30,722 bases of DNA, from the UHGV virus genome UHGV-0024034; one strand, written 5' to 3'. Below, in pieces: positions 1,232-17,924 of the stretch. Origin of the DNA: a virus. The translations under genes were made by a program, and so were the position numbers. Each line of letters begins with the position of its first letter. Within the stretch, counting starts at the first letter, position 1. A model generated the notes under the pieces. That model was not told the DNA's origin and made no database searches. It saw only the letters and a program-made list of their open reading frames with translations.

Positions 1232-1570
1232 TTAATTACAAAGGGCTGTAGCGGCATCAATCACCGGTGAAATTGAAATTTTAACGCCGTCATACTCAGG
1301 GTCATCCTTCCATACGTCATCTAAGTTAGACCCCTCCAGCTTTCCTGATTTAACAGCATCTACCGCCATGCCATTCAGAGGATATCTATCATCAGTTTTG
1401 ATGTCATACACAAAAGCATAAGCACGGTTAACACATGATACCTTTGCCTTTTCAAAGGTTAGAGGCCACTTGTCACCATATGCAGCGCCGTCTATCTCTT
1501 TAAACTTCTCAGCGGCTATGGCTGAGGAAGAAAGTGCAATGCAGACTATCGCAAATATAAACTTTTTCAT
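1232..1570 (-). CDS. Small secreted protein (signal peptide, two Cys), accessory gene downstream of cI
   Basis: 112 aa; N-terminus MKKFIFAIVCIALSSSAIA is a typical Sec signal peptide; GGAG Shine-Dalgarno 5 nt before the ATG, only 9 bp after the cI stop; locally AT-richer than the structural genes. Confidence 0.6.
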   Translation of the reverse strand: MKKFIFAIVCIALSSSAIAAEKFKEIDGAAYGDKWPLTFEKAKVSCVNRAYAFVYDIKTDDRYPLNGMAVDAVKSGKLEGSNLDDVWKDDPEYDGVKISISPVIDAATALCN

Positions 1571-1579
1571 TACTGCTCC

Positions 1580-2425
1580 TTAAACATGCTTTTCCAAAGT
1601 AAAAATAACCGCACCTGATGGTGTGATATCTGAAATATTACATTCAAACTCAGCAGACTTATTTGATAACCTGACCTTTCCGCCTGGCAACCTGATTACG
1701 TCAAAAACATCGAGTGCGCCATCAATACCAATAAGCCAGCGACCATTTCCTATCTTCGAGTTAGAACTATCAACAAGCCAAGATGTGCTCACACCATCAA
1801 TAAACACTAAATCATCAGTATTTGATGGAACCATAGATATATCAGGAGTCCAGCGTCCGATATCTTTGAGTTCGCCAGCCTCGAGGCGGCACTTTCTAAT
1901 CGTTAAAGCATTTGCCGGTTCACCATCATTACTGTTACGCATCTGGCCTTTTCCGGTTGATAACCATTCTAACGATACGCCAGTATCAAGGGCGCAAGTG
2001 ACAACCACGTCACCGGGGAAAAAATCGCGTCTAACCCAAGTGCTTATAGTGCCGGAAGATATACCTAATAAATCTCCAAGCTCTTTTTGCAGAGTAAAAC
2101 CATACGCATCGAGAATCCGACGCAGAACCGCCCTCCCTCCATTTGCCATGATTTCATCATAGAGTTGCTTACCTTTAAGCTTAGTTTTCACCACTTCAAA
2201 TCTTGCATTTGCAAGCTCACCATTAATTAGCCATCGCAGGTCAGCTCCAGTATCAAGAGCACACTCAACGAAAACGTTGCTAGGGATTACGTTTCTAGCA
2301 AGCCAGCTACTCACGTTGTTTGCATGTATGCCAAGCCTTTCGGCTAGTTCCTTTTGCTGCTTAAAGCCGTATGCAGAAAGGACACGTTCCAATGCGGCAG
2401 ACGCATTAACATCATTTTTAGACAT
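1580..2425 (-). CDS. cI: CI-type immunity repressor (186 CI-like) with tandemly duplicated N-terminal HTH domain
   Basis: Two internal repeats (..VLSAYGFKQQKELAERLGIHANNVSSWLARNVIPSNVFVECALDTGADLRWL.. and ..ILDAYGFTLQKELGDLLGISSGTISTWVRRDFFPGDVVVTCALDTGVSLEWL..) resembling the 186 CI HTH domain, plus a C-terminal domain. Start taken at Met-64 of the ORF-track frame, because the upstream part of the ORF runs through the promoter region. Confidence 0.8.
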   Translation of the reverse strand: MSKNDVNASAALERVLSAYGFKQQKELAERLGIHANNVSSWLARNVIPSNVFVECALDTGADLRWLINGELANARFEVVKTKLKGKQLYDEIMANGGRAVLRRILDAYGFTLQKELGDLLGISSGTISTWVRRDFFPGDVVVTCALDTGVSLEWLSTGKGQMRNSNDGEPANALTIRKCRLEAGELKDIGRWTPDISMVPSNTDDLVFIDGVSTSWLVDSSNSKIGNGRWLIGIDGALDVFDVIRLPGGKVRLSNKSAEFECNISDITPSGAVIFTLEKHV

Positions 2426-2446
2426 ATGACACCAACAAGAATTTTG

Positions 2447-2475
2447 TTTACAACCAAAATTTAGCGATCTATATT
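2447..2475 (+). promoter_or_regulatory. Putative rightward early (lytic) promoter pR: -35 TTTACA (2447..2452), 17-bp spacer, -10 TATATT (2470..2475)
   Basis: Sigma70-like hexamers with canonical spacing in the cI-apl switch region; CI operators and the leftward cI promoter not resolved. Confidence 0.4.
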
Positions 2476-2538
2476 GGTGCTCACCGACCAAGATGCACAC
2501 CACTGCACTACATTTCAAACAACAGGAGATAATGCGAT

Positions 2539-2910
2539 ATGTCAGATGCAAAATCAATCTCGACGCACGACTCGCAAAACTCACAAAATCAAACTGTGCT
2601 GCTAGACCCAACACAGTTTGATGCCATCGTTACCGCCATGCTGCCAGCTCTACAGACAATGATTCGCTCCGCTATGTCAGACACGATGACTGTGAAAGAC
2701 TTCGCCGCTACTCGCGGTGTTAGCGAGCGTCTGGTCTGGCAATGGCTCGATGAGGGAGTCCTTCTCAAAGCTCCGACCAAAGACTTTTCCAACAAAGAGG
2801 AAGCTGCTAAACGAAGCCGAACCCTCGTAAATGTAAAAGCATGGCGCGATAAGCTGACTCAACAAGCGATTGATTGTCGCTACATCGACCAGCGCACCGC
2901 TCTTAACTGA
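2539..2910 (+). CDS. Apl/Cox-like excisionase and transcriptional regulator
   Basis: First rightward gene after the switch region; HTH-like segment TVKDFAATRGVSERLVWQWLDEGVL; AGGAG RBS about 10 nt upstream. Longer than 186 Apl, so the true start may be an internal Met. Confidence 0.55.
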   Translation: MSDAKSISTHDSQNSQNQTVLLDPTQFDAIVTAMLPALQTMIRSAMSDTMTVKDFAATRGVSERLVWQWLDEGVLLKAPTKDFSNKEEAAKRSRTLVNVKAWRDKLTQQAIDCRYIDQRTALN

Positions 2911-2942
2911 ATTTGATTATGCAAGTTAGAGGGAATTTAACC

Positions 2943-3452
2943 ATGTTTGATTTTCAGGTTTCCAAACATCCCCACTATGACGAAGCATGCCGCATTTTCG
3001 CACAGCGTCACAACATGGCGAAGCTGGCCGAGCGTGCAGGTATGAACGTTCAAACGTTACGTAACAAGCTCAACCCGGAACAGCCTCACCAGTTCACGCC
3101 GCCTGAATTGTGGCTGCTGACTGACCTGACCGAAGACTCAACCCTCATTGATGGTTTTTTAGCGCAGATTCACTGCCTACCATGCGTGCCGGTTAATGAG
3201 TTGGCTAAAGACAAATTGCAGTCTTATGTCATGCGCGCGATGCGTGAACTCGGCGAACTGGCGAGCGGCGCGGTATCTGATGAACGTCTGACCACTGCCC
3301 GTAAGCACAACATGATTGAAAGCGTTAACTCCGGCATTCGCATGTTGTCATTGTCGGCTCTGGCGCTGCATGCACGTCTGCAGACTAATCCAGCTATGTC
3401 GAGCGTGGTCGATACCATGAGCGGTATTGGCGCATCGTTTGGTCTGATTTGA
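2943..3452 (+). CDS. cII: CII-like lysogeny establishment regulator
   Basis: 169 aa from MFDFQVSKHPHYDEACRIF...; matches my memory of 186 CII in sequence and length; GAGGG RBS. The ORF-track start at 2913 is probably an overextension. Confidence 0.8.
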   Translation: MFDFQVSKHPHYDEACRIFAQRHNMAKLAERAGMNVQTLRNKLNPEQPHQFTPPELWLLTDLTEDSTLIDGFLAQIHCLPCVPVNELAKDKLQSYVMRAMRELGELASGAVSDERLTTARKHNMIESVNSGIRMLSLSALALHARLQTNPAMSSVVDTMSGIGASFGLI

Positions 3453-3453
3453 G

Positions 3454-3660
3454 GTGCGTATGCTGAAAAGTGAACCGTCATTCGCATCGCTGCTCGTTAA
3501 GCAAAGCCCCGGCATGCACTACGGCCACGGCTGGATCGCAGGTAAGGACGGCAAGCGCTGGCACCCGAGCCACTCGCAGGCTGATTTACTGGCTGGCCTC
3601 TCTACTCAAAAGCGGGGGGGATCATGGCTATCGAAGCTGTTTCCGCGACTGTTCCGCTAA
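3454..3660 (+). CDS. Hypothetical early protein (position of 186 fil/dhr-type genes)
   Basis: 68-aa ORF starting 2 nt after the cII stop with a GGTG RBS; no recognisable motif. Confidence 0.4.
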   Translation: MRMLKSEPSFASLLVKQSPGMHYGHGWIAGKDGKRWHPSHSQADLLAGLSTQKRGGSWLSKLFPRLFR

Positions 3661-3962
3661 AAGCGGGTGAACGTCTGGCCGGTCTCAATCATGTTGCCGA
3701 ATTGCGCGCGAGATATTGGGGCGATAGCTGGAAAGAGGTTGAACGTTTTGTCGATGATATGCGCGATAAACGTGACCCACAATTTGAAGAAAATAATCGG
3801 GCGCTGGCCGCTATTTTCTTTCTGGCAAAAATACCGGCGGCTCGTCATGAACTCGAATTAAGTGAGCTGACTACTGACGAGAAAAAGGCGCTTATTACAG
3901 CGATGAATCATTTTCGTGCAGTAGTGAGCTTATTTCCCAAACGGCTAACCATGCCGAATTAA
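3624..3962 (+). CDS. Hypothetical early protein
   Basis: 112-aa ORF; G-rich RBS before the ATG; overlaps the previous ORF by 37 nt. Confidence 0.45.
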   Translation: MAIEAVSATVPLKAGERLAGLNHVAELRARYWGDSWKEVERFVDDMRDKRDPQFEENNRALAAIFFLAKIPAARHELELSELTTDEKKALITAMNHFRAVVSLFPKRLTMPN

Positions 3963-4029
3963 TCCAAACAGAAATTTAATGGCGTAAACCCGCCGGGCAT
4001 CTTATTGCCCGAAAGCAGGAGAGTTAATT

Positions 4030-4257
4030 ATGCGTAATACCGAAATCCGTAGTTTTAACACTGATAGCGATGCGCTGGCCGTATTGCTGACCGATGCAAA
4101 AAAAGAAGAGCGTAAAGACCGCGCGCTCGCTGTTTCCATCCGCCTTGAGGCGCTGGCTATTCATATTACCAGAGAGGGTATGAGCGGCACCGAAGCTGCC
4201 GAACTGCTGCGCCGTGAAGCAACCCGCTTTGAGAATGAATCACAGGAGCTGCACTAA
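4030..4257 (+). CDS. Hypothetical early protein
   Basis: 75-aa ORF with AGGAG RBS; its stop overlaps the start of the next gene. Confidence 0.5.
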   Translation: MRNTEIRSFNTDSDALAVLLTDAKKEERKDRALAVSIRLEALAIHITREGMSGTEAAELLRREATRFENESQELH

Positions 4258-4478
4258 TGGCCGACGCAATGGATTTAGCACAACTGCGCGAGCAGGAAGA
4301 CCGCGAACGCCACATCAGCAACGCACGCACCCGTATCGCTGCACCTTCCCGTTTTCTTTGCGAGGAATGTGACACACCAATCCCGGAAGCTCGCCGCATT
4401 GCGATTCCGGGCGTGGCTTTTTGCGTAACCTGCCAGCAAATAGCAGAGCTAAAAAACAAACACTATCGGGGGGTATAA
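4257..4478 (+). CDS. TraR/DksA-family C4 zinc-finger protein
   Basis: 73 aa with CxxC-(17)-CxxC (CEECDTPIPEARRIAIPGVAFCVTC), the pattern found just upstream of gene A in P2-like phages. Confidence 0.7.
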   Translation: MADAMDLAQLREQEDRERHISNARTRIAAPSRFLCEECDTPIPEARRIAIPGVAFCVTCQQIAELKNKHYRGV

Positions 4479-4479
4479 A

Positions 4480-6702
4480 TTGGCTGTTCAATTCGCTTAT
4501 CCGTGGAACGTCCCACGGTCGGCAATCTCCAGCCCATACCTTACTTATGAGCAACAGCATCGCCGCGACCGTATGTTCGCGGCTTTGCTGCATGCAAAAA
4601 AGGTGCTTTCTCTCCAGCCCGACTGCGTGCGGTTAGATGTTTATCGCACTGCTGCGGTGCTGGAGCAAAATCAGGGTAGTCAACGAGCCAATGCATTTTT
4701 AATCAGCTTCTGCAAAAAGGCATTGCCGCGTCTTGAACTGGTCGCAAAAAAATACGAATGCGCTGGTATCAACAGCAAGGTATCAACCGCTGTTTTTGGA
4801 AGTCATTTTGATACTCAGCAAATGCAATATCTGTCGTCACGCATGGTTAATATGGTCGCCCAATATAACCGTCTCCCGGACATGTCGCGCGCTGATGTTG
4901 ACCTGTTGGCCGCTGATATTGCTAATTTCATTCGTGGTGAACTTGCCAACATTAATGACCACGGATTCGGCGAGCTTAAAACGCTGTACACCTGGTATAT
5001 TCGTGCTGGCTTTATTTCCCTCCAATTCAACGTTATCCCACCACATTGGGAGCGGGTTGAAAAAAAATATGTCGGTGCGGATGAAATCGCACCGGCTATC
5101 GCCAAAATGTTTAACGATGGGTGGTGGCGCGGTCGTTTGCGCCGTGTTGCAGCTACGTGGCGCGAACACCTGCAAATTGCAGTCGGCAACGTCAGTAAGA
5201 AAAAAAACACTTACGCGAGTAAAAACTGCGTGACTGACTGGCGTGAACAAAAGCGCCGCACTCGTGAATTTCTCAAAGGTCTGGATCTCGAAGACGAAGA
5301 CGGCAACCGTATCAGCCTAATTGAAAAATATGATGGCTCAGTTGCTAACCCTGCGATTCGCCGCTGTGAGCTCATGACCCGCATTCGTGGGTTTGAAAAC
5401 ATCTGTAATGAGCTCGGTTATGTCGGTGAGTTTTACACTCTAACCGCGCCGTCAAAATATCACGCCACGACTAAAGCCGGTTACCGTAACAGCAAATGGA
5501 GCGGTGCCAGCCCGGCTGACACGCAAAACTATCTAACCGGTATCTGGGCGCGTATCCGTGCCAAACTACATCGGGAAGATGTCCGTATTTTCGGTATTCG
5601 TGTCGCCGAGCCCCATCACGACGGCACTCCACACTGGCACATGCTGATGTTCATGCTGCCGGAAGATGTTGAATATGTTCGCTCCATCGTCCGTAAATAC
5701 GCATGGAAAGAAGACCGCCACGAACTGAAAAGCGATAAATCCAAAAAAGCACGTTTCCACGCCGAGTCCATTGACCCGGAGAAAGGCAGCGCAACCGGCT
5801 ATGTTGCTAAATACATTTCAAAAAATATCGACGGTTATGCTCTCGATGGTGAAACCGATGATGAAAGCGGTGAGCTGCTGAAAGAGACAGCCCCCGCCGT
5901 TTCAGCATGGGCTGCGCGCTGGCACATCCGTCAGTTTCAGTTTATTGGTGGTGCGCCGGTGACGGTTTACCGTGAGTTGCGTCGCCTCGCTGATACCGAA
6001 ACCGCGCACGGTCTGAGCGTTGAGTTTGCCGCCGTCCATGATGCCGCCGACGCTGGTGACTGGGCTGGTTATGTTAATGCTCAGGGTGGGCCGTTTGTCC
6101 GTCGCGATGATTTACAGGTGCGCACACTGTATGAACCGCGCACCGAGCTTAATCAGTACGGTGAGGAAACGGTATGTATTAAGGGGGTCTACGATTCCTC
6201 CATAGGTGCAGGAAGCCCGATTTTAACCCGGCTCACTCAGTGGAAGATTGTTCCGAAGCGTGCTGTTGATTTGGCCGTTGACCTTCAGGACGGCAAAGCC
6301 GTCCCTCGGAGTTCTGTCAATAACTGTACGGGAAGCGAAAGCGATCCACCGATACTGGATTTAACAAAACCACTGAGTCGGCGTGAAAGACGAGAATTGA
6401 CCAACCGACTCAGGAAGCAAAAGCCAGCAGCACGGCGAAAATTCATCCACGGAACGGATGAGCAAAACGCAGCTATAGCTAAAACTATCGATGAGATACA
6501 TCTGACAACCGGCATTAATATCAGCCGGGGCGAAGCCCTGCACCTGATGGCCGGTGGTAAAAGTTGTTTTGATGGTAAATGGCTACGCGGAACGGCCAAA
6601 GGAGAAATATTTTCCGCAGCACCATCGCATGAGGCTAAAGCTCGGAAAATCCTTAATCGTGTTGCGGCGATGGCTGAAGCATCAAAACCAATACATGAGT
6701 AA
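4480..6702 (+). CDS. A: Replication initiation endonuclease gpA (rolling-circle initiator)
   Basis: 740 aa; conserved EPHHDGTPHWHMLMF and GYVAKYISKNIDGYALDG motifs; N-terminus aligns with P2 gpA; apparent TTG start with a G-rich RBS. Confidence 0.95.
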   Translation: MAVQFAYPWNVPRSAISSPYLTYEQQHRRDRMFAALLHAKKVLSLQPDCVRLDVYRTAAVLEQNQGSQRANAFLISFCKKALPRLELVAKKYECAGINSKVSTAVFGSHFDTQQMQYLSSRMVNMVAQYNRLPDMSRADVDLLAADIANFIRGELANINDHGFGELKTLYTWYIRAGFISLQFNVIPPHWERVEKKYVGADEIAPAIAKMFNDGWWRGRLRRVAATWREHLQIAVGNVSKKKNTYASKNCVTDWREQKRRTREFLKGLDLEDEDGNRISLIEKYDGSVANPAIRRCELMTRIRGFENICNELGYVGEFYTLTAPSKYHATTKAGYRNSKWSGASPADTQNYLTGIWARIRAKLHREDVRIFGIRVAEPHHDGTPHWHMLMFMLPEDVEYVRSIVRKYAWKEDRHELKSDKSKKARFHAESIDPEKGSATGYVAKYISKNIDGYALDGETDDESGELLKETAPAVSAWAARWHIRQFQFIGGAPVTVYRELRRLADTETAHGLSVEFAAVHDAADAGDWAGYVNAQGGPFVRRDDLQVRTLYEPRTELNQYGEETVCIKGVYDSSIGAGSPILTRLTQWKIVPKRAVDLAVDLQDGKAVPRSSVNNCTGSESDPPILDLTKPLSRRERRELTNRLRKQKPAARRKFIHGTDEQNAAIAKTIDEIHLTTGINISRGEALHLMAGGKSCFDGKWLRGTAKGEIFSAAPSHEAKARKILNRVAAMAEASKPIHE

Positions 6703-6776
6703 TTCATATCCATATCATGCACATACAGCAATCGCTCTATTCGTTTTTTTTCTTCCCATCTTTTGCCAATACGTGC

Positions 6777-6796
6777 TACTGTATAAATATACAGTA
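6777..6796. promoter_or_regulatory. LexA box (SOS operator) TACTGTATAAATATACAGTA
   Basis: Perfect CTGT-N8-ACAG palindrome with an AT-rich core; -35-like TTGCCA at 6763..6768; about 20 bp upstream of the ORF at 6816. Confidence 0.8.
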
Positions 6797-6815
6797 ACCC
6801 TGTGGGAGGGATTTC

Positions 6816-6998
6816 ATGGTTGGCGAACATTTCAGCCGAACGCAGCAAAAGTGGGCTTGTGTGCAATTTATTGCCGAGGTATCTCTGATTGCAAACTGCA
6901 AGCCATCAGACTTAAAGCTCGCGCTCACTCTCATTGCAGACCTAGCAAACAGCGAAAATAACGAAACCGAAGATGATAATTTTTATAAGGCTGATTAG
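6816..6998 (+). CDS. Small protein in LexA-controlled operon; candidate Tum-like antirepressor N-terminal part
   Basis: 60-aa ORF with GGGAGGG RBS directly downstream of the LexA box; function inferred from context only. Confidence 0.45.
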   Translation: MVGEHFSRTQQKWACVQFIAEVSLIANCKPSDLKLALTLIADLANSENNETEDDNFYKAD

Positions 6999-7001
6999 AT
7001 T

Positions 7002-7235
7002 ATGAGAATCAATATCACGTTGGATAAAGAGCAAAAAATTAGTCAGGCAACATTGGATGCACTTGAGGCTGAACTGTACCGCAATCTTCAACCTATTTAC
7101 CCAAAGACTGCTATCCGAATTCGCAAGGGCTCCGCTAATGGCGTTGAACTAAGCGGTTTGAAACTGGACGAAGATAAAAAACGAGTAATGGAAATCATGC
7201 AGCAGGTATGGGAGGACGATAGCTGGCTGCATTAA
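7002..7235 (+). CDS. DinI-family protein
   Basis: 77 aa, MRINITLDK...LDALEAELYRNLQ...EIMQQVWEDDSWLH; same length and pattern as E. coli DinI as I recall it (MRI.V...DAL..EL.R...I.Q..WE..D.W). Confidence 0.75.
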   Translation: MRINITLDKEQKISQATLDALEAELYRNLQPIYPKTAIRIRKGSANGVELSGLKLDEDKKRVMEIMQQVWEDDSWLH

Positions 7236-7237
7236 CA

Positions 7238-7306
7238 AACGCCGCCGGTGCTGAAACTTGCTTTCAGTGCTGGCGGGGTTGAACAACTCGCACCGCGAGG
7301 CGCTAG
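7238..7306 (+). repeat. Hairpin-containing 69-bp repeat, copy 1 (15-bp stem 7242..7256 / 7262..7276)
   Basis: Direct repeat of 7643..7711 with about 9 mismatches; imperfect inverted repeat forms a stem with G-U pairs on the plus-strand RNA only; begins immediately after the stop codon of the DinI-like ORF. Confidence 0.6.
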
Positions 7307-7430
7307 TTCTTCCTCTCAAAGTTTCTCGATGTTTTATTGGTTACACACCAGTGATGAATGGGACGTTACCTTAGCGGGTTTTATAGTGGCGCTGTGGCAG
7401 CGCTAAATAAAATTCATTGAGGGCGATAAT

Positions 7431-7640
7431 ATGCATCGACTACCGGGCGAAATTCCGCAGCACAAAACTAAAAGCATCAAACTGATGGCCATCGTTCATC
7501 GTCTGCAGCAGATAATGGTCAATGAGAATTTGACACCCGCCGAGCTGGTCGGGTGTGCCGAAATAGTCAGGGATAATTACGGCAAGCTGGATAGCATCAG
7601 CAAGCCGACACATTACTCACCGCCACCACGTCGACCATAG
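7431..7640 (+). CDS. Hypothetical protein
   Basis: 69-aa ORF with GAGGG RBS, flanked on both sides by the hairpin repeats. Confidence 0.4.
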   Translation: MHRLPGEIPQHKTKSIKLMAIVHRLQQIMVNENLTPAELVGCAEIVRDNYGKLDSISKPTHYSPPPRRP

Positions 7641-7642
7641 AT

Positions 7643-7711
7643 AACGCCGCCGGAGCTGAAACTCGCTTTCAGGTCTGGCGGGGTTGAACAACGAGCTACG
7701 CGAGGCGTTAG
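7643..7711 (+). repeat. Hairpin-containing 69-bp repeat, copy 2 (stem 7647..7661 / 7667..7681)
   Basis: See copy 1; begins immediately after the stop codon of the ORF at 7431..7640. Confidence 0.6.
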
Positions 7712-7773
7712 CCGGTCATAGCGTCGCAAATACTTCAACCGTCTGCTGGTTAAATAATTCGAGGTTTTTGGAC

Positions 7774-7968
7774 ATGCAAAATCCCCTTTCATCGAAAAAT
7801 GACCCGTTTGCCGATTGGGCAAAGAATCTGACTTTAATGGCTTTAAATAACGACCTGAGCTCTCGCGAGGTGGAAAGCTACACCGCAAAAATGGTCGAGC
7901 AGGCCGGTAAAGATGAGCTATCAGTCGTTATCAAACACCTGTTAAATCACATCAGAATGCGCAAATAA
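7774..7968 (+). CDS. Hypothetical protein
   Basis: 64-aa ORF from an internal Met of the ORF-track entry 7684..7968, whose N-terminal part lies inside repeat copy 2; weak RBS. Confidence 0.35.
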   Translation: MQNPLSSKNDPFADWAKNLTLMALNNDLSSREVESYTAKMVEQAGKDELSVVIKHLLNHIRMRK

Positions 7969-7984
7969 GAGGAACTATATAAAT

Positions 7985-8086
7985 ATGTTATCTCTCGTTT
8001 ATGAAAATCCGTGGACGACGATTTTTCTGATGATTTTTGCCAGCATGTGCCTCAACAGTGTTATTGGCGCATTGCGCGGCCATTAA
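7985..8086 (+). CDS. 33-aa hydrophobic peptide (candidate small membrane protein)
   Basis: MLSLVYENPWTTIFLMIFASMCLNSVIGALRGH; AAGAGG RBS about 11 nt upstream; followed by a strong terminator. Below the 60-aa cut-off of the ORF track. Confidence 0.3.
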   Translation: MLSLVYENPWTTIFLMIFASMCLNSVIGALRGH

Positions 8087-8104
8087 TCGCGACAAAACCA
8101 GACT

Positions 8105-8134
8105 AAAACCGGCACCCTGAATGCCGGTTTTTTT
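8105..8134 (+). terminator. Rho-independent terminator
   Basis: Stem ACCGGCA/TGCCGGT (8108..8114 / 8122..8128), 7-nt loop, then a run of seven T; preceded by an A-run, so possibly bidirectional. Confidence 0.7.
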
Positions 8135-8294
8135 ATGCCATTTTTCCGCGAATTTCCCGTTTTTTAGTCGTGCATGCATTAGGTGCATGGTTTTGCATGC
8201 GTCAGTCTTGCCCGTTCTGTCCGTGCGCCGCCAGAGCTAGCGCGGATCCAGAGTTGTCATGCAACTGCATTAAAACCGCCCCATAAAGCGGGCA

Positions 8295-8313
8295 GGCGTG
8301 GCGGGGAAAGCAT
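8295..8313 (+). other. cos: cos site, 19-nt cohesive-end sequence GGCGTGGCGGGGAAAGCAT
   Basis: Exact match to the 186 cohesive end as I recall it (P2 differs at two positions); lies between the replication side and the packaging genes, as expected in a P2-type prophage. Confidence 0.7.
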
Positions 8314-8532
8314 TGCGCGCCAGCAGTGATGCATAATAATAAAAATTATCCTCTGAGCGCGTCGTGATGGCGCTGTCGTGGTCGCTGCTGGTTCGTTGGT
8401 GGTCGAGTGTGTTCGTGCGCGTGAGACGCATCTGATGCGTGATGGTGGTGTGCATGGAAAAGCCACCAGGAGCAGCGGCTTTACAGGAGTGGCAGGATTC
8501 AAACTGCTAATTATGTTTCTACTATGATTAAA

Positions 8533-9537
8533 CTAATTTACATGTATGTAGAGTTCACCGTCGCCAGACCAATCGGGACACTCTAAAACAAGCCCAAACT
8601 GCTTGAATATTTCATCAATGATTATTGTTATCTCCCGAAAATCACCAAAACCTGTAATGTGCTGGTCATTAAACTTCCCATAAAGATTCTGAAAAGCAAT
8701 GCCTAATTCTGATAATTGATATCTTATCTTTGAGTTGGATAGTGTAAGGGATAGCTTTGGATCGTATTCTTTAATATTGATGTTTAGAGAATGGACATAA
8801 CCCATCGCATAAGCATAAGAGTTGATGATTAGCCTGATACGTTTTTTTACTTCAAGATACATGTCATTCAGAGAAATATTACCGTACTTATAACCCCAGA
8901 TGAGTTTTTCAATCTCGTCAGATACTTCATTTACAACAGTGTCAAGATTCTCTAAAAATAAATCGATAGTTTCTTGAGGGGCAGACCCCGAAGACATGTA
9001 ATTAGCGAGATATTCAGACCATGCACGCGTGGCTGAGATAAGAAGCGCGCTACCATACTCGTTGACTGTAAAGTTTTGGGCTAAGCATGTTAGTAAGTTT
9101 TTTTCATGTACGTGCACTAATTCATGGTGAATGCGATGGATGACTGCGAGGTATCCTTCTTCTTTCAGTTTTAAGAAGCTACCATCATTGAAAAGCTCAA
9201 CAAAAAAATCAATCGATAGCACAAGGGTATATTCTTCACATAGCCCATCATTGCCAATTTTTGTTACTAACTGCCCGACGGCTGCGCCCTGTTTGCTATT
9301 GGTAAATGAACTAGGGGATTTGTGTTGGTAAGAGGATGTTACCTTTTGAAGAGCTTCACTGAAGTTATAGGAAACAATCACGCATTTTAATTTGGAGATA
9401 TCAAGATTGAGATTTTTTGTTAAAGCTCGGATAGCTTCTAGTGTGAAATTACCGATATTATTTGCTTCTTGCTCAGTAGCGAAACCTTCGAGGGTTATTT
9501 TAAAATCAGTTTCCAAAATATTAATCTCCGCGCCCAT
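8533..9537 (-). CDS. AT-rich orphan protein with HExxH motif; candidate anti-phage or abortive-infection effector
   Basis: 334-aa ORF, markedly AT-rich by eye relative to the GC-rich flanks; HELVHVHE at residues 138..145 (nt 9126..9103); no resemblance to P2/186 core proteins that I recognise; lies between cos and portal gene Q. Confidence 0.6.
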   Translation of the reverse strand: MGAEINILETDFKITLEGFATEQEANNIGNFTLEAIRALTKNLNLDISKLKCVIVSYNFSEALQKVTSSYQHKSPSSFTNSKQGAAVGQLVTKIGNDGLCEEYTLVLSIDFFVELFNDGSFLKLKEEGYLAVIHRIHHELVHVHEKNLLTCLAQNFTVNEYGSALLISATRAWSEYLANYMSSGSAPQETIDLFLENLDTVVNEVSDEIEKLIWGYKYGNISLNDMYLEVKKRIRLIINSYAYAMGYVHSLNINIKEYDPKLSLTLSNSKIRYQLSELGIAFQNLYGKFNDQHITGFGDFREITIIIDEIFKQFGLVLECPDWSGDGELYIHVN

Positions 9538-9555
9538 TGTTTTGATATTCGATGC

Positions 9556-9584
9556 ACTATAGCTTTCGCAGATTGCATCTTCAA
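9556..9584 (-). promoter_or_regulatory. Putative sigma70 promoter for the AT-rich gene: -35 TTGAAG (9584..9579), 17-bp spacer, -10 TATAGT (9561..9556)
   Basis: Hexamers with canonical spacing on the minus strand in the 77-bp gap between the Q stop and the ATG at 9537; no clear Shine-Dalgarno. Confidence 0.35.
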
Positions 9585-9614
9585 TAATGAGCGCAGAGAT
9601 TGTGGCGGCCTAAG

Positions 9615-10661
9615 TTATTCTGGGTTGTCGAGGGTGTACTCTTTGAATCTGATGACCTCCATGCCGAGCCAGTCATTTACCTCCCTGAACCTGTCCTGTA
9701 GCGGCGACAGCTCGTTGCGCACAAATACCTTTGCCACCTTCTCAACATCACCGAGTGAACCGATATTCTCGGGCTTGCCGCCCATGAGCTGGAACGGTAC
9801 GCGGTGCGCGTCCATCAGATCGGCGGCACTGGCCTTCTTGATGTTGAAAAAGTCATCCTTTGTGGCGACCTCGCTCAGTGGCACGATTTTGATGCCGTCC
9901 GGTTTTCCGCCGGGAGCGTAGAAAAACAGGTTCTTAAAGTTGCCGAGCCCTTTTGAGTTGCGCATCGCCTCGCGCAGCGATTCGACGTCGGTCGCGCTCT
10001 GCGCCGGGTCAGTCACATACATGATGTAGCCTGCGTGCGCGCCGTTCTGATAATACTTGCGGCGGAACAGCGTCGCGGATTCATTCAGCCAAGCGGAATT
10101 AAGCGCGCTGAGATATTCCGGCAGACCGTAAATCTCCTGATTAATGTCGGGCTCCAGCAGGTGAAACACGGTATCAGGCGCGAACTCGTGCGGCTGGGTG
10201 AAGTTTTCCACAAACCAGAAAATCGAATCGTCGACTCCGCGTCGGGTGTATTTGGCTGGCGAGGCCAGCAGTTTGATTAACTGGCCGGTGACGCTGTGGC
10301 GCTGCTCAAGAAAGGCGTTACCGAACACCAGATAATCGAGCGCAAAGCGGCTGAAATCCTGACGGGATAACAACGGGTGCGGAATGTAGGTGCTCGCGAG
10401 CACGTTACGCTTAACATAAATTGGCGAGCTGTGATGCACGGCAGAGCGCAGGCTCTTTGCCAGCCCTGAGAAGCTGACCGGCGGCTCGTACCATTTGCCG
10501 TTACTGATGCACTCGACGTAATCCAGAATGTCGCGCTTATCGAGTACCGGCACCGGCTCGCCGAAGGTGAACGCTGTCGTTTTTGGCGGTGCGCTGGCGG
10601 TCAGTTGTTGTGGTTTGCTGGCCTTTTGTGCGTTGGCTTTACGGGATTTTTGTTTACCCAT
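9615..10661 (-). CDS. Q: Portal protein gpQ
   Basis: 348 aa; long conserved blocks shared with P2 gpQ (FTFGEPVPVLDRRDILDYVEC, LPEYLSALNSAWLNESATLFRRKYY, FFNIKKASAADL). Confidence 0.95.
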   Translation of the reverse strand: MGKQKSRKANAQKASKPQQLTASAPPKTTAFTFGEPVPVLDKRDILDYVECISNGKWYEPPVSFSGLAKSLRSAVHHSSPIYVKRNVLASTYIPHPLLSRQDFSRFALDYLVFGNAFLEQRHSVTGQLIKLLASPAKYTRRGVDDSIFWFVENFTQPHEFAPDTVFHLLEPDINQEIYGLPEYLSALNSAWLNESATLFRRKYYQNGAHAGYIMYVTDPAQSATDVESLREAMRNSKGLGNFKNLFFYAPGGKPDGIKIVPLSEVATKDDFFNIKKASAADLMDAHRVPFQLMGGKPENIGSLGDVEKVAKVFVRNELSPLQDRFREVNDWLGMEVIRFKEYTLDNPE

Positions 10662-10662
10662 T

Positions 10663-12432
10663 TTAGTTGAACTCCAGAATAGATTTAGGCTGCATGCCGC
10701 TACCGGCAGAAAGCGGTTCGTTTAACAGGGCGTGCATGGTCGCCCATGCGATATCGGCGTGGCTGGCTTCCTCGGTGCGGCTGGCCTCATAGGTGGCGCA
10801 GCGCCCGCTGCTGGTCATGGTTTTGCGGATGGACATAAACGACTGCGTGACGTCGGTTGCTCCGGCGTCGTACTCCAGACAGCCACGGCGTATGGTGTCT
10901 TTCGCCTTGAGTACCATTGCGGTTTTCATTTCAGGTGTGTAACGGATGCCGCGTGCCGCCGGGTAAAATGAGCGCACCAGCTGGAACACGCCGAGACCGA
11001 GGCCGGTTGCGTCAATGCCGATGTATTCGACGTTGTATTTCTCGGTCAGCTTGCGGATGCCCTCTGCCTGTGCTGCAAAATCCATGCCCTTCCACTGGTG
11101 GCGCTCCAGCATGCGGAACTTGCCACCAGAGACCACCGGCGGCGCGAGCACGACGCACCCGGCACTGTCGCCGGTGTGTGACGGGTCGTAGCCAATCCAG
11201 ACAGGACGAGAGCCGAACGGATGGTCGGCGAACGGGGCAAAGTCCTCCCATTCCTCCATCACATCGACCATGCAGCGCTGCAGCTCCTCGAACGGGAATA
11301 CCGACGCTTTATCGTCGACAAACTCGCACATAAACAGGTTCTTAAAGTCCTCATCACTGTTTTCGCGTTTGAGCTGGTCGAGGTCGAACAGGGTGCAGCC
11401 ACCCGCAAGGGCGTCCTCAATGGTGACAATCTGCCGCCACTGGCCATCGTCGCAGAGCTGGCCACCGGCGAGCGCGCTGTGACTGATGTCGATTTCGATG
11501 CGGTCGGCAATCCGGCTGCGCCCCTTGTTGAACAGCTCGCCAGACCAGAAGGGGTAAGCGCCGTGCGCCAGCGTGGAAGGTGTCGAAAAATAGGTCGAGC
11601 GCAGGTGCTTTTGCGAGGCCATGCCCGAGGCGACTTTGCGCAGTTTCTGAAAATTCGGGATCCAGAATATTTCATCGACATACAGATCGCCGTTATGGCT
11701 CTGCGCGGTGTTGGAATTGGTACCGAGAAAAATCAGTTTTGCGCCGTTGTTACCGATGACAATCGGGTCGCCAGTCAGATCAACGTCGACCAGTCGCGCA
11801 AACTGGATGATGTATTCGCGGAACACGTAAGCCTGCGTTTTACTGGCTGATAAAAATATCTGGTTATGGCCGGTTTTGAGTGCGCGCAGCAGTGCCTCGC
11901 GGGAGAAATAGAATGTCGCGCCAATCTGGCGGGATTTGAGAATGTCACGAATACGGTGCTCCAGTCCTGCGCGGTACCACTGCAACTGGTACTCGAAAGA
12001 CTGGTCGAAAAATAATTCCTCTAGTTTATCGATAGCCTCGTCGCTGAAAAAATTCTTTTTCGGCTTTTTGCGCTCCCCTTTGTTGCGGTTGGCGACGTTG
12101 GGGTTAAGGTCGGCTTCGTTGCCGGTCTGGCTGTAGCGGTTGACTCGCGCCAACCGTTCAATCTGCCGTCCGAGCAGGTCAATCTCTTTGAAATCACCCC
12201 CTGTCTTTTGCGGCTTGGCGATGAGCTGAATCAGCCTGGCCTCAAGGCTGCTTTCAACGCGGGAAATCGGCGCGATGCCGTCCCAGCCGTCGCGCTGCTT
12301 CCAGCTCTGCACGGTCGGGCGCTTGACCTGCAGCATTTCGGCAATCTGTGGCACGGAAAAACCCTGCCAGTAAAGCAGCGATGCCTGCCGTCGCGGGTCA
12401 TGCAACAAGGTTGTATCGGTGGAAATGGTCAT
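10663..12432 (-). CDS. P: Terminase large (ATPase) subunit gpP
   Basis: 589 aa, same size and position as P2 gpP; its stop abuts the Q start. Confidence 0.9.
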   Translation of the reverse strand: MTISTDTTLLHDPRRQASLLYWQGFSVPQIAEMLQVKRPTVQSWKQRDGWDGIAPISRVESSLEARLIQLIAKPQKTGGDFKEIDLLGRQIERLARVNRYSQTGNEADLNPNVANRNKGERKKPKKNFFSDEAIDKLEELFFDQSFEYQLQWYRAGLEHRIRDILKSRQIGATFYFSREALLRALKTGHNQIFLSASKTQAYVFREYIIQFARLVDVDLTGDPIVIGNNGAKLIFLGTNSNTAQSHNGDLYVDEIFWIPNFQKLRKVASGMASQKHLRSTYFSTPSTLAHGAYPFWSGELFNKGRSRIADRIEIDISHSALAGGQLCDDGQWRQIVTIEDALAGGCTLFDLDQLKRENSDEDFKNLFMCEFVDDKASVFPFEELQRCMVDVMEEWEDFAPFADHPFGSRPVWIGYDPSHTGDSAGCVVLAPPVVSGGKFRMLERHQWKGMDFAAQAEGIRKLTEKYNVEYIGIDATGLGLGVFQLVRSFYPAARGIRYTPEMKTAMVLKAKDTIRRGCLEYDAGATDVTQSFMSIRKTMTSSGRCATYEASRTEEASHADIAWATMHALLNEPLSAGSGMQPKSILEFN

Positions 12433-12597
12433 TGATGCCTCGCCGTAGTGGATTCAGGGCAAGGCTACTTAATGGCCGTCAGTGATTCGCTAAGGTGCTG
12501 TTGTGTGGGCGGTTGTCCAGTCGTCATTAGTGGTCTGGCGTGTCCTGAGTCTGGAAACTGGCGGTGACCAGTAACCTCAACCTCAGGACTCCTGACA
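12433..12597. promoter_or_regulatory. Divergent late-promoter region between P and O
   Basis: Positional only (P and O diverge here as in P2); I could not confidently locate an Ogr-type TGT-N12-ACA element. Confidence 0.3.
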
Positions 12598-13452
12598 ATG
12601 GCAAAAAAAGTCTCAAAATTCTTTCGCATCGGCGTCGAGGGTGACACCTGCGACGGCCGCATTATCAGCGGCAACGATATTCAGGAAATGGCCGAATCGT
12701 TTGACCCTCGCGTCTACGGTTGCCGCATTAACCTTGAGCATATTCGCGGTCTCTTTCCTGATGGCGACTTCAAACGCTTAGGCGATGTGGTTGAACTGAA
12801 AGCTGAAATAATTGACGACGATTCTGCGCTTAACGGCAAATGGGCGTTGTTCGCCAGAATCACCCCAACCGACGACCTGATTGCTATGAATAAAAAATTG
12901 CAGAAGGTCTACACCTCAATGGAAATTCAGCCGAATTTTGCCAATACCGGCAAATGCTACCTCGTCGGCCTTGCTGTCACCGATGACCCGGCGAGCCTCG
13001 GCACTGAATACCTCGAATTCTGCCGCAACGCGAAGCACAACCCGCTGCAGCGCTTTAAGACCAACCCTGAAAACGTCTTTTCCGCTGCCACTCTGGCCGA
13101 GCTGGAGTTTGAAGACGTTCCCGACACGGTGCTCAACAGCCTGGCCGATAAGGTGAAAGCCATTTTCAGCCGTAAGCAGGTCAGCGACGATGCGCGCCTG
13201 AATGATGTGCATGAAGCGGTGACCACCGTCAGCGAACATGTGCAAACCAACCTGACAAAACAGGACGAGCGCCTTTCCGCTATGGAAACCGCGTTTGCCA
13301 CTTTCAAACAGGAACTGACCGGCAAGGTTGAAGAAACCAGCCAGGCATTTTCCGACCTGAAAACCACCCTCGATAAAACCGAAAGTTTCAGCCAGCCGCG
13401 ACGCACGAAAGCCAGCGGCGGTGGTGGCGATGAGCTGCTGACAGACTGCTGA
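12598..13452 (+). CDS. O: Capsid scaffolding protein gpO
   Basis: 284 aa; conserved N-terminal region similar to P2 gpO; AGGA RBS. Confidence 0.9.
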   Translation: MAKKVSKFFRIGVEGDTCDGRIISGNDIQEMAESFDPRVYGCRINLEHIRGLFPDGDFKRLGDVVELKAEIIDDDSALNGKWALFARITPTDDLIAMNKKLQKVYTSMEIQPNFANTGKCYLVGLAVTDDPASLGTEYLEFCRNAKHNPLQRFKTNPENVFSAATLAELEFEDVPDTVLNSLADKVKAIFSRKQVSDDARLNDVHEAVTTVSEHVQTNLTKQDERLSAMETAFATFKQELTGKVEETSQAFSDLKTTLDKTESFSQPRRTKASGGGGDELLTDC

Positions 13453-13528
13453 TAAACCGCAGACCAGAAACCGGGCGGCATCCCCGCCCGATGCAGTGAC
13501 TAACCGATAAATTCAAACAGGAAATACT

Positions 13529-14596
13529 ATGCGCCCGGATACCCGTTTTAAGTTCAATGCCTATCTGACCCGCGTCGCTGAGCTGAACGGCATCAGCACT
13601 GATGACGTCAGTAAAAAATTCACCGTCGAGCCGTCCGTCACGCAAACACTGATGAACAAAGTGCAGGAGTCATCCGCGTTTCTGCAGACGATTAATATTC
13701 TGCCGGTCGCAGAAATGAAGGGTGAGAAAATCGGCGTCGGTGTGACCGGTACTATCGCCAGCACGACCGACACCTCGGGCGATGATGAGCGTAAGACCGC
13801 CGACTTCACCGCGCTTGAGTCCAACAAGTACGAGTGCGACCAAATTAATTTTGACTTCCATCTGAAATATAAAACCCTCGACCTGTGGGCGCGTTTTCAG
13901 GACTTCCAGCGCCGCATCCGCGACGCCATTGTCAAACGTCAGGCACTGGATTTCATCATGGCCGGTTTTAACGGTACCACCCGCGCCGCCACCTCTGACC
14001 GCACCAAAAATCCGATGCTGCAGGATGTGGCCGTCGGCTGGCTGCAGAAATACCGCAATGAAGCCCCGACGCGCGTGATGAGCAACATCACCGACGCTGA
14101 CGGTAAGGTCGTTTCAGCAGTGATTCGTGTAGGTCGAAACGGCGACTATGAGAACCTCGACGCGCTGGTGATGGACGCCACCAACAACCTGATTGACGAG
14201 GTTTATCAGGATGACCCGAAACTCGTTGCCATCGTTGGCCGTAAGCTGCTGGCCGACAAATATTTCCCGCTGGTGAACAAGCCGCAGGAAAACAGCGAGG
14301 CGCTTGCGGCAGATATCATCATCAGCCAGAAGCGAATCGGCAACCTGCCTGCTGTGCGTGTGCCGTACTTCCCGGCGAATGCCGTGTTAGTGACCACGCT
14401 GGAAAACCTATCTATCTATTTCATGGATGAGAGTCACCGCCGCAGCATTGATGAAAACCCGAAAAAAGACCGCGTTGAAAACTACGAGTCGATGAATATC
14501 GACTATGTGGTCGAGGCGTATGCCGCCGGGTGCCTGCTGGAAAACATCACCCTGGGCGATTTCACCGCACCTGCAGCACCGGAAAGCGGAGCCTAA
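13529..14596 (+). CDS. N: Major capsid protein gpN
   Basis: 355 aa; position and sequence character of P2 gpN. Confidence 0.9.
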   Translation: MRPDTRFKFNAYLTRVAELNGISTDDVSKKFTVEPSVTQTLMNKVQESSAFLQTINILPVAEMKGEKIGVGVTGTIASTTDTSGDDERKTADFTALESNKYECDQINFDFHLKYKTLDLWARFQDFQRRIRDAIVKRQALDFIMAGFNGTTRAATSDRTKNPMLQDVAVGWLQKYRNEAPTRVMSNITDADGKVVSAVIRVGRNGDYENLDALVMDATNNLIDEVYQDDPKLVAIVGRKLLADKYFPLVNKPQENSEALAADIIISQKRIGNLPAVRVPYFPANAVLVTTLENLSIYFMDESHRRSIDENPKKDRVENYESMNIDYVVEAYAAGCLLENITLGDFTAPAAPESGA

Positions 14597-14599
14597 ACC

Positions 14600-15349
14600 A
14601 TGACGAGCCCCGCACAGCGTCACATGATGCGGGTCTCGGCCTCTCAAGCCGCGCAGCGGGAGCAAGCCCCGCTGCGCCATGCAACCGCCTATGAGCAGAT
14701 GCTGGTTAAGCTGGCCGATGACCGCCGCACGTTAAAAAACATCCGTTCAAACGAACGTAAAGCCGAGAAAAAGCGCGAGCTGCTGCCGTTCTATGCGCCG
14801 TGGGTCGCCGGTGTGCTGGCTGATGGCCGTGGTGCGCAGGATGACATTGTCATGACCGTCATGCTGTGGCGTCTCGATGCCGGTGATATCGCTGGCGCGC
14901 TGGAAATTGCCCCGTACGCGCTGAAATACGGCCTCACCTCTGACCACCGCCGCACAACACCTTACATGCTGGTTGAGGAAGTGGCGCTTGCTGCGCAGCG
15001 CCTGCGCGATGCCGGTGAGTCTGTCGACCTTTCCTGGCTGCAGACCACTATCGACCTGACCGACGGCGCTGACGTTCCCGATATGGTGCGCGCCCGTCTG
15101 CATAAGGTGACAGGCCTGACCCTGCGTGATGCCGGTATGAATGCAGAGGCGCTGGCGCAGTTTCAGCGCGCGATGCAGCTCGACCGCAATGCCGGTGTGC
15201 GCAAGGAGATTGAGCGACTGGAACGGGCATTGAAGCCAAAGCCAGAGGCCGCGCCCCGTAAAACGACTAAACCGCGCACGCGCAAACCTGCCAACAAACC
15301 GGCGGCAAAGCGCGGGCGTCCACCAAAGGCGGTAAAAACCGCCGGTTAA
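14600..15349 (+). CDS. M: Terminase small (endonuclease) subunit gpM
   Basis: 249 aa with a basic Lys/Arg/Pro-rich C-terminal tail; follows N as in P2. Confidence 0.85.
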   Translation: MTSPAQRHMMRVSASQAAQREQAPLRHATAYEQMLVKLADDRRTLKNIRSNERKAEKKRELLPFYAPWVAGVLADGRGAQDDIVMTVMLWRLDAGDIAGALEIAPYALKYGLTSDHRRTTPYMLVEEVALAAQRLRDAGESVDLSWLQTTIDLTDGADVPDMVRARLHKVTGLTLRDAGMNAEALAQFQRAMQLDRNAGVRKEIERLERALKPKPEAAPRKTTKPRTRKPANKPAAKRGRPPKAVKTAG

Positions 15350-16939: not shown

Positions 16940-17349
16940 AAATCCTGATTACACTTCTGGTGCTGACTGTGCTCGGGATGTTGTGGTTGCGCCATGAGAA
17001 CGGCAATTTATCCCGCTCCTTTGAGACAGCAAACCGCGTCGCGAGCGAACAAAAGACGACGATTGGCATGCTGAAAAATCAGCTCAGTGTTGCCGGTCAG
17101 CTTGCCAGACGTAATGAATCTGCGCAGGTGGCACTGCGTGAACAGCTCGCAAAGGCCAGCGAGGAAGCCAGCCGCCGCGAGCAATCAATAACGAGGTTAC
17201 TTAATGAAAATGAAGCCTTTCGCCGCTGGTATAACGCTGCTTTACCTGATGTTGTGCGTCGGTTGCACATCCGCACCGCCTGCGCCAGCGCCGGTGATTG
17301 TGGTCAACGGATGCCCGAGAGTGAGCCTTTGCCCGATGCCGGGAAGTGA
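16936..17349 (+). CDS. lysB: LysB (Rz-like inner-membrane spanin)
   Basis: 137 aa with an N-terminal transmembrane helix and coiled-coil-like remainder; its start overlaps the K stop. Confidence 0.8.
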   Translation: MKILITLLVLTVLGMLWLRHENGNLSRSFETANRVASEQKTTIGMLKNQLSVAGQLARRNESAQVALREQLAKASEEASRREQSITRLLNENEAFRRWYNAALPDVVRRLHIRTACASAGDCGQRMPESEPLPDAGK

Positions 17350-17494
17350 CCCGAAAACCAATGGTGACCTGAGCGCAGATATCCGCCGCCTTGAGGGTGC
17401 GCTGATCGCCTGCGCGCTACAGGTCAAAACCGTCAAACACTGTCAGGATGAACTCGATGCAGAAGCACAAAAGCCTGCGCAAAGCGCTGATTAA
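17204..17494 (+). CDS. lysC: LysC (Rz1-like outer-membrane lipoprotein spanin), embedded in a different frame of lysB
   Basis: 96 aa with signal peptide and lipobox-like LCVGC, Pro-rich; arrangement as in P2 lysB/lysC. Confidence 0.65.
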   Translation: MKMKPFAAGITLLYLMLCVGCTSAPPAPAPVIVVNGCPRVSLCPMPGSDPKTNGDLSADIRRLEGALIACALQVKTVKHCQDELDAEAQKPAQSAD

Positions 17495-17924
17495 CGCCGT
17501 GCCGCAGCTCCGAAACAACCCCGATATGCTGCGCCTTTTTGCCGACAACGGCCATACCGATTCCAGACTGGCGAGCTCGCTGTCGTTTGAAAAGGTGTAC
17601 GTGCTTAACGTGGTGGTGACCGACTTCACCGGTGACCTTGATTTGATATTCGTGCCGGTGCAGGCGTGGCTGCGTGAACATCAGCCGGACATTATGACCA
17701 CCGACGACGGGCGGGAAAAAGGATTCACCTGGATTATTGATATCAATAACGACGATTCGCTCGATATCAGTATCAGCCTGAGGCTCACCGAGCGCACGCT
17801 CGTCAAAGAGGTCGACGGCGCGCTGCATGTCAGCTATGCCCCTGAGCCGCCGCTGCCTGAGCCGGTGACGCGCCCGGTCGAGCTGTACGTTAATGGCGAA
17901 CTGGTGAGTAAGTGGGATGAGTGA
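17457..17924 (+). CDS. R: Tail completion protein gpR
   Basis: 155 aa from MQKHKSLRKAL...; blocks shared with P2 gpR (NPDMLR, LSFEK, VTDFTGD, PEPVTRP, LYVNGELVSKWDE). Confidence 0.85.
   Translation: MQKHKSLRKALINAVPQLRNNPDMLRLFADNGHTDSRLASSLSFEKVYVLNVVVTDFTGDLDLIFVPVQAWLREHQPDIMTTDDGREKGFTWIIDINNDDSLDISISLRLTERTLVKEVDGALHVSYAPEPPLPEPVTRPVELYVNGELVSKWDE

Follow-up and report, generated by a model that had tools for sequence, protein, structure and literature searches.

An AT-rich cargo gene beside cos in a 186-like Escherichia coli prophage encodes a predicted gluzincin-like metallopeptidase of a mobile protein family

The 30,722-nt virus genome UHGV-0024034 (here termed the window, i.e. this whole stretch of DNA) is a complete-looking 186-like (Peduoviridae) Escherichia coli prophage, which carries on its minus strand at 8533..9537 a genuine open reading frame (ORF) of 334 amino acids (aa) counted from its ATG. 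It is well supported that this ORF is a self-contained and horizontally mobile cargo gene for a cytoplasmic gluzincin-like enzyme, with putative metal-binding and proteolytic activity. The original prediction, made from the sequence alone, had singled it out as a candidate undescribed single-gene anti-phage effector with a zincin-type HExxH signature. We estimate at roughly 0.5 the probability that the gene is a moron encoding a latent cytoplasmic zinc metallopeptidase that acts as a stand-alone, Lit-like anti-phage system; support for the defence role is circumstantial and comes from guilt by association.

The cargo ORF has a GC content of 37.5% (36% at third codon positions, GC3), 16 points under the prophage value (53.2% for the remainder of the window). 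The portal gene reaches 55.5% (GC3 70.5%) and the large terminase gene terL 57.0% (GC3 71.7%). The AT-richness first judged by eye thus holds by computation. It is located between cos, marked by the 186-type 19-nt cohesive-end sequence GGCGTGGCGGGGAAAGCAT at 8295..8313 on the plus strand (all 19 positions match, only once in the window, where chance predicts 0 such matches), and the portal gene (P2 Q / 186 W; 9615..10661, minus strand), which precedes the cargo ORF by 77 bp on the same strand. The phage 186 record U32222 annotates this sequence as cos, and both landmarks agree with the cos-to-portal location proposed originally.

In phage 186, the interval between cos and the portal gene W measures only 176 bp and contains the annotated terminator tW. 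Positions 1-175 of phage 186 align with 8295-8468 of the window and positions 196-1184 with 9615-10603, from which an insertion of 1,146 bp (8469..9614) is deduced that separates the stop codon of the portal gene from a degenerate tW-like hairpin and comprises a promoter, a ribosome-binding site, the ORF and a 3' spacer. Sequence comparison revealed no counterpart of the cargo gene in phage 186. Phage vB_EcoM-613R3 and 25 complete E. coli genomes contain copies that are at least 99% identical, and the ORF was found in 26 of 5,426 complete genomes altogether, although about 130 E. coli genomes contain a portal gene that is at least 80% identical. In other related prophages, this slot is occupied by a DUF2188 gene, or cos directly adjoins the portal gene and the cargo is found on the gpA side (gpA is located at 4480-6702 in the window). 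The gene is therefore neither fixed across 186-like phages nor phage-like in composition, and its sporadic carriage, absence from phage 186 and AT-richness bear out the proposal that it was horizontally acquired. The interval between gpA and gpQ is a documented defence hotspot of P2-like phages (Rousset et al. 2022, PMC9122126), as the original prediction had supposed, and both its location and the variable occupancy among relatives place the gene with the cargo of this cos-proximal hotspot.

The alternative occupant DUF2188 (e.g. at 3732..4043 of locus L003, E. coli EC15) appears repeatedly in the tables that Rousset et al. give for the P4 and P2 hotspots, and in an Enterobacter island (4711..4938 of loci L018/L019) the DUF2188 gene adjoins both a resolvase and a zincin-like gene. 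DUF2188 and the zincin-like gene may represent a linked mobile pair or share a recombination module.

The upstream regions of eight copies of the gene were aligned and all eight retain a Shine-Dalgarno sequence, GGAG (9529..9526), followed after a 9-nt gap by TTG (9516..9514; entire element 9514..9529, minus strand), which is also the start assigned by the annotation pipeline PGAP in NZ_CM129885. Most homologues start at the equivalent ME.D, residues 1-7 are modelled with a predicted local distance difference test (pLDDT) score below 50, and the ATG at 9537 occurs in the enteric clade only and lacks a Shine-Dalgarno sequence. Hence, the true start is probably the TTG at 9516..9514, yielding a product of 327 aa, so that the location and strand of the predicted ORF stand, whereas its length of 334 aa probably does not. 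Residue numbers given here follow the 334-aa (ATG) version throughout.

A sigma-70-like promoter (9556..9584, minus strand) is present within the inserted DNA and consists of TTGAAG (9584..9579), a 17-nt spacer and TATAGT (9561..9556), as described previously. The promoter scan by itself did not exceed chance (5 sites versus 3.6 expected). Both hexamers are retained in the Enterobacter and Serratia fonticola copies despite a diverged spacer and a resolvase gene upstream in place of the portal gene; the promoter thus appears to travel with the cargo gene and is probably its own. At the other end, the hairpin AAAGCCGCTGCTCCTGGTGGCTTT (8459..8482, minus strand), a degenerate counterpart of the phage 186 terminator tW, is the likely 3' end of the transcript, as judged by its position and its homology to tW; the fold energy of the whole 91-nt stretch containing it was not above that of shuffled sequences. 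No terminator-like site was identified between the portal gene and the cargo ORF, which makes read-through from the late operon likely as well. Expression in the lysogen, as originally envisaged, is therefore probable from the gene's own promoter but is not the sole mode, as the gene lies inside the late portal/terminase unit and upstream of the tW-like hairpin. The conserved promoter hexamers, atypical GC content and absence from phage 186 and most relatives are all features of a moron, with the degenerate hairpin as a weaker terminator element.

This arrangement weighs against a dedicated role in lysogen protection, because a gene positioned inside the late transcription unit might instead benefit the phage during its lytic cycle, e.g. 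as a counter-defence or host-takeover protease or as a factor directed against P4-type satellites, transcribed late together with portal and terminase. Similar arrangements exist in a Yersinia P2-like prophage, where the gene again follows terL, portal and Ogr on the same strand, and in a CTX-like filamentous prophage (inovirus), where a homologue is located downstream of zot in the same orientation. We nevertheless consider a lytic-cycle function unlikely, since the promoter is conserved along with the gene, carriage is restricted to the 26 of about 130 close prophages, and homologues also reside outside phages and without a late operon, namely in an integron cassette, in islands with Shedu, TIR, PD-T4-7 or type I restriction-modification (R-M) genes, and in resolvase-borne islands.

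The cargo protein contains the sequence H137-H138-E139-L-V-H142-V-H144-E145, in agreement with the HExxH motif of the original prediction, whereas approximately 0.02 such motifs are expected by chance at the composition of this protein. A first homologue search yielded 78 clusters, every one labelled hypothetical, from Escherichia, Salmonella, Klebsiella, Pectobacterium, Serratia, Yersinia, Kosakonia, Shewanella and Psychromonas, and the ORF is intact in approximately 2,000 Salmonella index blocks. An exhaustive profile search extended the family to 355 representatives at 50% identity from Proteobacteria, Campylobacterota, Acidobacteriota and Firmicutes, nearly all of which are 305-340 aa long and match over their full length. 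No match for the cargo protein was obtained in Pfam, NCBIfam or PADLOC (PADLOC-DB v2.0.0: 0 matches at E<=10), and its sole assignment in PHROGs is phrog_11743, a family of unknown function.

In an alignment of 31 sequences with identities to the query down to 42%, the invariant positions include H137, H138, E139, H142, E145, N147, W173, S174, E175, Y176, A178 and N179. A superfamily alignment of 95 sequences, which share approximately 20% identity with the query, retains E139 and H142 in all 95 members and H138 and E175 in 94 each; W173, A178 and Y176 are conserved in 89, 90 and 87 members, respectively. The entire H-E-H-E tetrad is kept in 94 of the 95 members. The possibility that the HExxH motif is an accident of an unconserved sequence is at odds with these counts. 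Conservation is confined almost entirely to residues of catalytic type, a pattern that favours an enzyme, and strong selection on the catalytic tetrad is well supported by these alignments. The predicted metal-binding/catalytic motif H137-H138-E139-L-V-H142 (codons 9109..9126, minus strand) is located on a predicted helix comprising residues 126-148, and the second block, W173-S-E175-Y-L-A-N179 (codons 9001..9021, minus strand), on a predicted helix comprising residues 160-185. E175, positioned 32 residues past H142 on the helix following the HExxH helix of the model, is a candidate third zinc ligand. Although AT-rich DNA readily gives rise to long ORFs and the protein is without database annotation, a spurious or decaying ORF with a chance HExxH is practically excluded by the 78 close clusters, the nearly always full-length 355 representatives, the invariant motif, the confidently predicted structure and the intact Salmonella copies.

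With a computed mass of approximately 37 kDa, a pI of 5.0 and neither a transmembrane (TM) segment, a signal peptide nor a recognizable secretion or delivery domain, the cargo protein should be soluble and cytoplasmic. Its AlphaFold2 (AF2) model is confident and places the family-wide conserved HExxH motif on an alpha-helix, as is characteristic of zincins/gluzincins (clan MA), within what is predicted to be a thermolysin-like catalytic fold. The strongest and most numerous structural matches are thermolysin/M1-type peptidases, with approximately 175 residues aligned including the N-terminal subdomain. Foldseek searches against PDB and BFVD returned no match at E<1e-3 and only weak zincin matches, and profile searches of PDB sequences with both family alignments returned only coiled-coil noise; the relationship is therefore visible at the remote-fold level only. 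Together, the invariance of the motif and the predicted fold now lend good support to the zincin assignment, which the original prediction had left unproven. Membership in the M1 aminopeptidases was considered and rejected, as the protein has no GxMEN motif (no G.MEN), no match to Pfam Peptidase_M1 and a His-Glu spacing of 32 instead of 18 residues.

A zincin fold does not necessarily imply proteolysis, and the protein could be another metal-dependent hydrolase, acting on nucleic acid (as in YbeY), on nucleotides or on a modified-protein linkage, or a module for sensing or regulation, which a degenerate fusion to DUF2971 (see below) might suggest. The motif of YbeY is H-x3-H-x5-H, unlike the HExxH...E of the cargo family. 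Given the thermolysin/M1-type character of the best structural matches and the tetrad conserved in all but one of the superfamily members, we regard a non-proteolytic function as rather improbable and favour a metallopeptidase.

The cargo gene is solitary in every context seen: neither a partner nor a neighbouring immunity gene is conserved alongside it. It occupies the same portal-adjacent slot in prophages of Salmonella, Klebsiella and Citrobacter. A profile search of the genome collection with the narrower of the two family alignments identified 12 loci. In addition to the Yersinia and CTX-like prophages mentioned above, homologues are found as a single-gene cassette between attC-like repeats in a Pseudoalteromonas chromosomal integron and in resolvase-borne islets of Enterobacter and S. 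fonticola, the latter of which also contains HEPN, pP_pnuc and Hcp genes. The S. fonticola copy is located amid Hcp/DUF4225 genes of type VI secretion system (T6SS) type, and the Kosakonia copy adjoins a YafO toxin gene and is near Tlde1. Free-living marine bacteria are among the hosts, as is a bee-gut symbiont. The GC content of the family genes is 33-39% everywhere, which equals the genomic background in marine Gammaproteobacteria and is 14-20 points lower than that of enteric hosts, suggesting that the gene was probably imported from an AT-rich gene pool.

Several of these vehicles have further features. The CTX-like prophage, present on a metagenomic contig (3948..10972 of locus L011), encodes RstA/Rep_trans, RstB and Zot and carries the homologue in the post-zot slot where CTX phage has ctxAB, and would be an inovirus with a candidate defence gene. 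The cassette array on chromosome 2 of Pseudoalteromonas phenolica (1500..14700 of locus L024) contains more than 10 attC-like repeats (TAACAA...GCGTTAG), with the homologue at 8001..8966 and a 300-nt segment duplicated at 2821-3120 and 9118-9417. The resolvase, a serine recombinase of approximately 190 aa, is divergently oriented 300-400 bp upstream of the homologue in two unrelated islands, those of S. fonticola (9042..9614 of locus L008) and Enterobacter (5116..5685 of locus L018), and could be either a vehicle moving the gene or an invertase controlling its promoter.

The inovirus and T6SS-type contexts also weigh against an anti-phage function, as they are compatible with a non-defence accessory role, in which the protein would promote fitness or virulence or would attack proteins of the host or of competitors as a toxin-like enzyme, much as other P2 hotspots contain the CDT toxin or partition systems and CTX phage contains ctxAB downstream of zot. 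The post-zot cargo slot, the Hcp/DUF4225 genes of S. fonticola and the Tlde1 and YafO genes of Kosakonia fit such a role, and non-defence cargo has been reported in this hotspot by Rousset et al. (PMC9122126). Conversely, the protein lacks features for secretion or delivery, no immunity gene is conserved next to it, its hosts include marine and symbiotic bacteria, and several neighbourhoods contain bona fide defence genes, so that we assign this alternative a low probability and continue to favour an anti-phage system.

The association with defence genes was assessed in a sample of approximately 15 contexts, without a computed background rate. In Colwellia, the homologue is flanked by a gene for a TIR-domain protein on one side and one for a PD-T4-7 homologue on the other, and Shedu SduA is no more than 5 kb away (one context). 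Further single contexts are Psychromonas marina, where the homologue is part of a type I R-M and toxin-antitoxin island, a distant Bacillus relative with AbiO/Nhi approximately 3 kb away, and S. fonticola with the HEPN gene nearby. In Shewanella, the homologue is located beside NERD and CSD-Excalibur genes. The most distant branch of the family does not clearly fit the association: its members are found among integrase, Fic, resolvase and methyltransferase genes, in islands that carry no annotation and look mobile but not clearly defensive. Two apparent associations were discarded, as a reverse transcriptase near the Vibrio copy belongs to a group II intron and is not a defence reverse transcriptase, and a 'DpdF' match in locus L022 is a topoisomerase-like protein.

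The most distant branch also has a convergent unannotated gene directly downstream, of 313 aa (9115..10056 of loci L032/L033) or 251 aa (9096..9851 of loci L034/L035), which is kept in independent contigs and may be a partner specific to this branch; no such gene accompanies the clade of the window.

Two of the 95 superfamily members have the catalytic and helical half fused to an N-terminal DUF2971/PDC-S31 module. They are the only members with a PADLOC match, to PDC-S31 through their N-terminal domain, and one of them lacks H138 and E175. DUF2971 is an ADP-ribosyltransferase-like domain (PMC12522546), and Aristaios, its single-gene form, is a validated abortive-infection (Abi) system (PMC11381338).

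Based on these observations, we hypothesize that the cargo gene is a self-contained moron inserted into the cos-proximal gpA-gpQ hotspot of a 186-like prophage, and that in the lysogen its own sigma-70 promoter would drive its transcription, to which read-through from the late portal/terminase operon would also contribute. H138, H142 and E175 would bind zinc, with E139 as the catalytic base, the N-terminal alpha/beta subdomain would supply a substrate-binding edge strand, and the C-terminal helical bundle (approximately residues 188-313) may sense infection or autoinhibit the enzyme. The protease would remain latent until infection and then cleave an essential host factor or a phage protein, whereby infection would be aborted or excluded. 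The gene, its insertion, its composition, the conserved tetrad, the predicted fold, the solitary mobility and the defence-rich neighbourhoods are observed here, and metal binding, proteolysis, latency, the substrate and the defence phenotype are inferred.

The identical 334-aa protein is listed as P2-hotspot System #76 with 51 occurrences in Table S5B of Rousset et al. 2022 (PMC9122126), where neither a Pfam domain nor a signal peptide, a TM segment or a note is given for it, and it is absent from Table S2 of cloned and assayed systems of the same study. Its designation as undescribed hence holds only in part, as it was catalogued, but without domain, note or assay. All sources examined label the protein hypothetical; the family was not found in the DefensePredictor paper and its supplements or in the integron defence preprint, and general literature searches on metalloprotease Abi systems yielded nothing relevant. 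As far as searched, its status as cargo is thus already on record, while the metallopeptidase assignment, the extent of the family and its mobility across elements are new. Tentatively, and at somewhat less than even odds, the protein may be the first representative of a new family of anti-phage metalloproteases that act on their own and are widely mobile (355 or more clusters at 50% identity). In such a family, a gluzincin of approximately 37 kDa would join C-terminal sensing to a proteolytic effector. It has no relationship to Lit, and prophage hotspots, filamentous phages, integron cassettes and resolvase-borne islets serve as its vehicles.

Defence systems that consist of a single protein lend themselves best to dissection and reuse; protease-based ones are rare, with Lit as the classic case, and the latency and infection recognition of such proteases are poorly understood. 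The family described here, unnamed and without a Pfam domain, is carried by Salmonella and E. coli genomes in their thousands and occupies a hotspot in which over one-third of assayed cargoes were defensive. For the unannotated System #76, there is thereby a specific hypothesis, which mutants of H138, E139, H142 and E175 can test. Should the gene not be defensive, a new protease of benefit to the phage would be indicated by its presence in a CTX-like cargo slot and its position in a late packaging operon.

The surroundings of cos in the window and its relatives contain additional features. A 61-aa minus-strand ORF (8270..8455) extends across the cos sequence and is labelled 'hypothetical protein' both in RefSeq (WP_000557532.1) and in phage vB_EcoM-613R3. 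It is probably a spurious gene call, as the homologous DNA of phage 186, its first 175 bp, is non-coding. An unannotated plus-strand ORF (7985..8086), located on the gpA side of cos, encodes a hydrophobic sequence of 33 aa (MLSLVYENPWTTIFLMIFASMCLNSVIGALRGH), which could be a small membrane peptide, toxin-like or a moron, and is directly followed by a strong bidirectional terminator-like hairpin with a 12-bp stem (AAAACCGGCATTCAGGGTGCCGGTTTT, 8105..8131). A 69-nt direct repeat with 87% identity (7238..7306 and 7643..7711), which has internal hairpin potential and ends in GCGCTAG/GCGTTAG, flanks a 405-bp unit with a 69-aa ORF (7431..7640). Relatives in Salmonella, Klebsiella and Citrobacter have one copy of the repeat, which suggests cassette-like gain of a module on the gpA side of the hotspot. 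Phage vB_EcoM-613R3 (locus L002), otherwise nearly identical, has on the gpA side of cos an additional 942-bp hypothetical gene (6584..7525) that the window lacks, and the two sides of cos therefore vary independently. In E. coli MB06232 (locus L001), the prophage with a 100%-identical cargo copy is degraded, with the N-to-E region deleted and a truncated major capsid gene fused to a tail-assembly remnant (16997..17798). The cargo ORF is still intact, which fits selection on the cargo apart from phage viability. An Rfam scan of the entire window detected zero RNA families.

Like other P2 and P4 hotspot cargo, which also includes old, tin, DUF4238, DprA-PRTase and the TIR+TM system of phage AC1 (PMC9122126), the gene occupies the gpA-gpQ slot by cos with variable occupancy. 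It differs from P2-type cargo, which is found on the A side of cos, in being located on the Q side and within the late transcription unit. DUF2971/PDC-S31/Aristaios connects the cargo family, via the two distant fusions, to a domain with validated anti-phage activity, whereas the window protein itself is without DUF2971. ImmA/IrrE (M78) and the minimal zincins SprT/Wss1, which are found in phages and defence regulators, e.g. CapP, have no Pfam match in the cargo protein, whose architecture is much larger and different; Peptidase_M78 was not detected with Pfam, and no conserved helix-turn-helix (HTH) partner was present beside the gene in the contexts examined. Among the gluzincins of clan MA(E), i.e. 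thermolysin (M4), the catalytic domain of M1 aminopeptidase, M9, M30 and M36, identity to the cargo protein is approximately 10% with no sequence-level match, and the cargo protein is distinguished by its H-to-E spacing of 32 residues (18-20 in known gluzincins), its cytoplasmic location without propeptide, signal peptide or GxMEN, and its different helical C-terminal domain.

The closest functional parallel is Lit of prophage e14 (MEROPS U49 / Pfam Peptidase_U49), the model of a latent metalloprotease acting as an abortive-infection system, which cleaves EF-Tu when the Gol peptide of phage T4 appears. Like the cargo protein, Lit is a prophage-borne, single-gene, cytoplasmic HExxH protein of approximately 300 aa, and the two have the local motif HHExxHV in common. 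Homology was rejected, as hhalign of the family alignment against e14 Lit gave a probability of 5.3% over 19 columns around this motif, and Pfam Peptidase_U49 did not match even at E<=10. The analogy to Lit drawn in the original prediction is thus retained as a functional likeness, but does not extend to homology beyond HHExxHV. The concept of a prophage-encoded single-gene metalloprotease Abi system is known, whereas this enzyme family is not, and it is set apart from Lit by the downstream WSEYxAN/E175 block and its long helical C-terminal domain.

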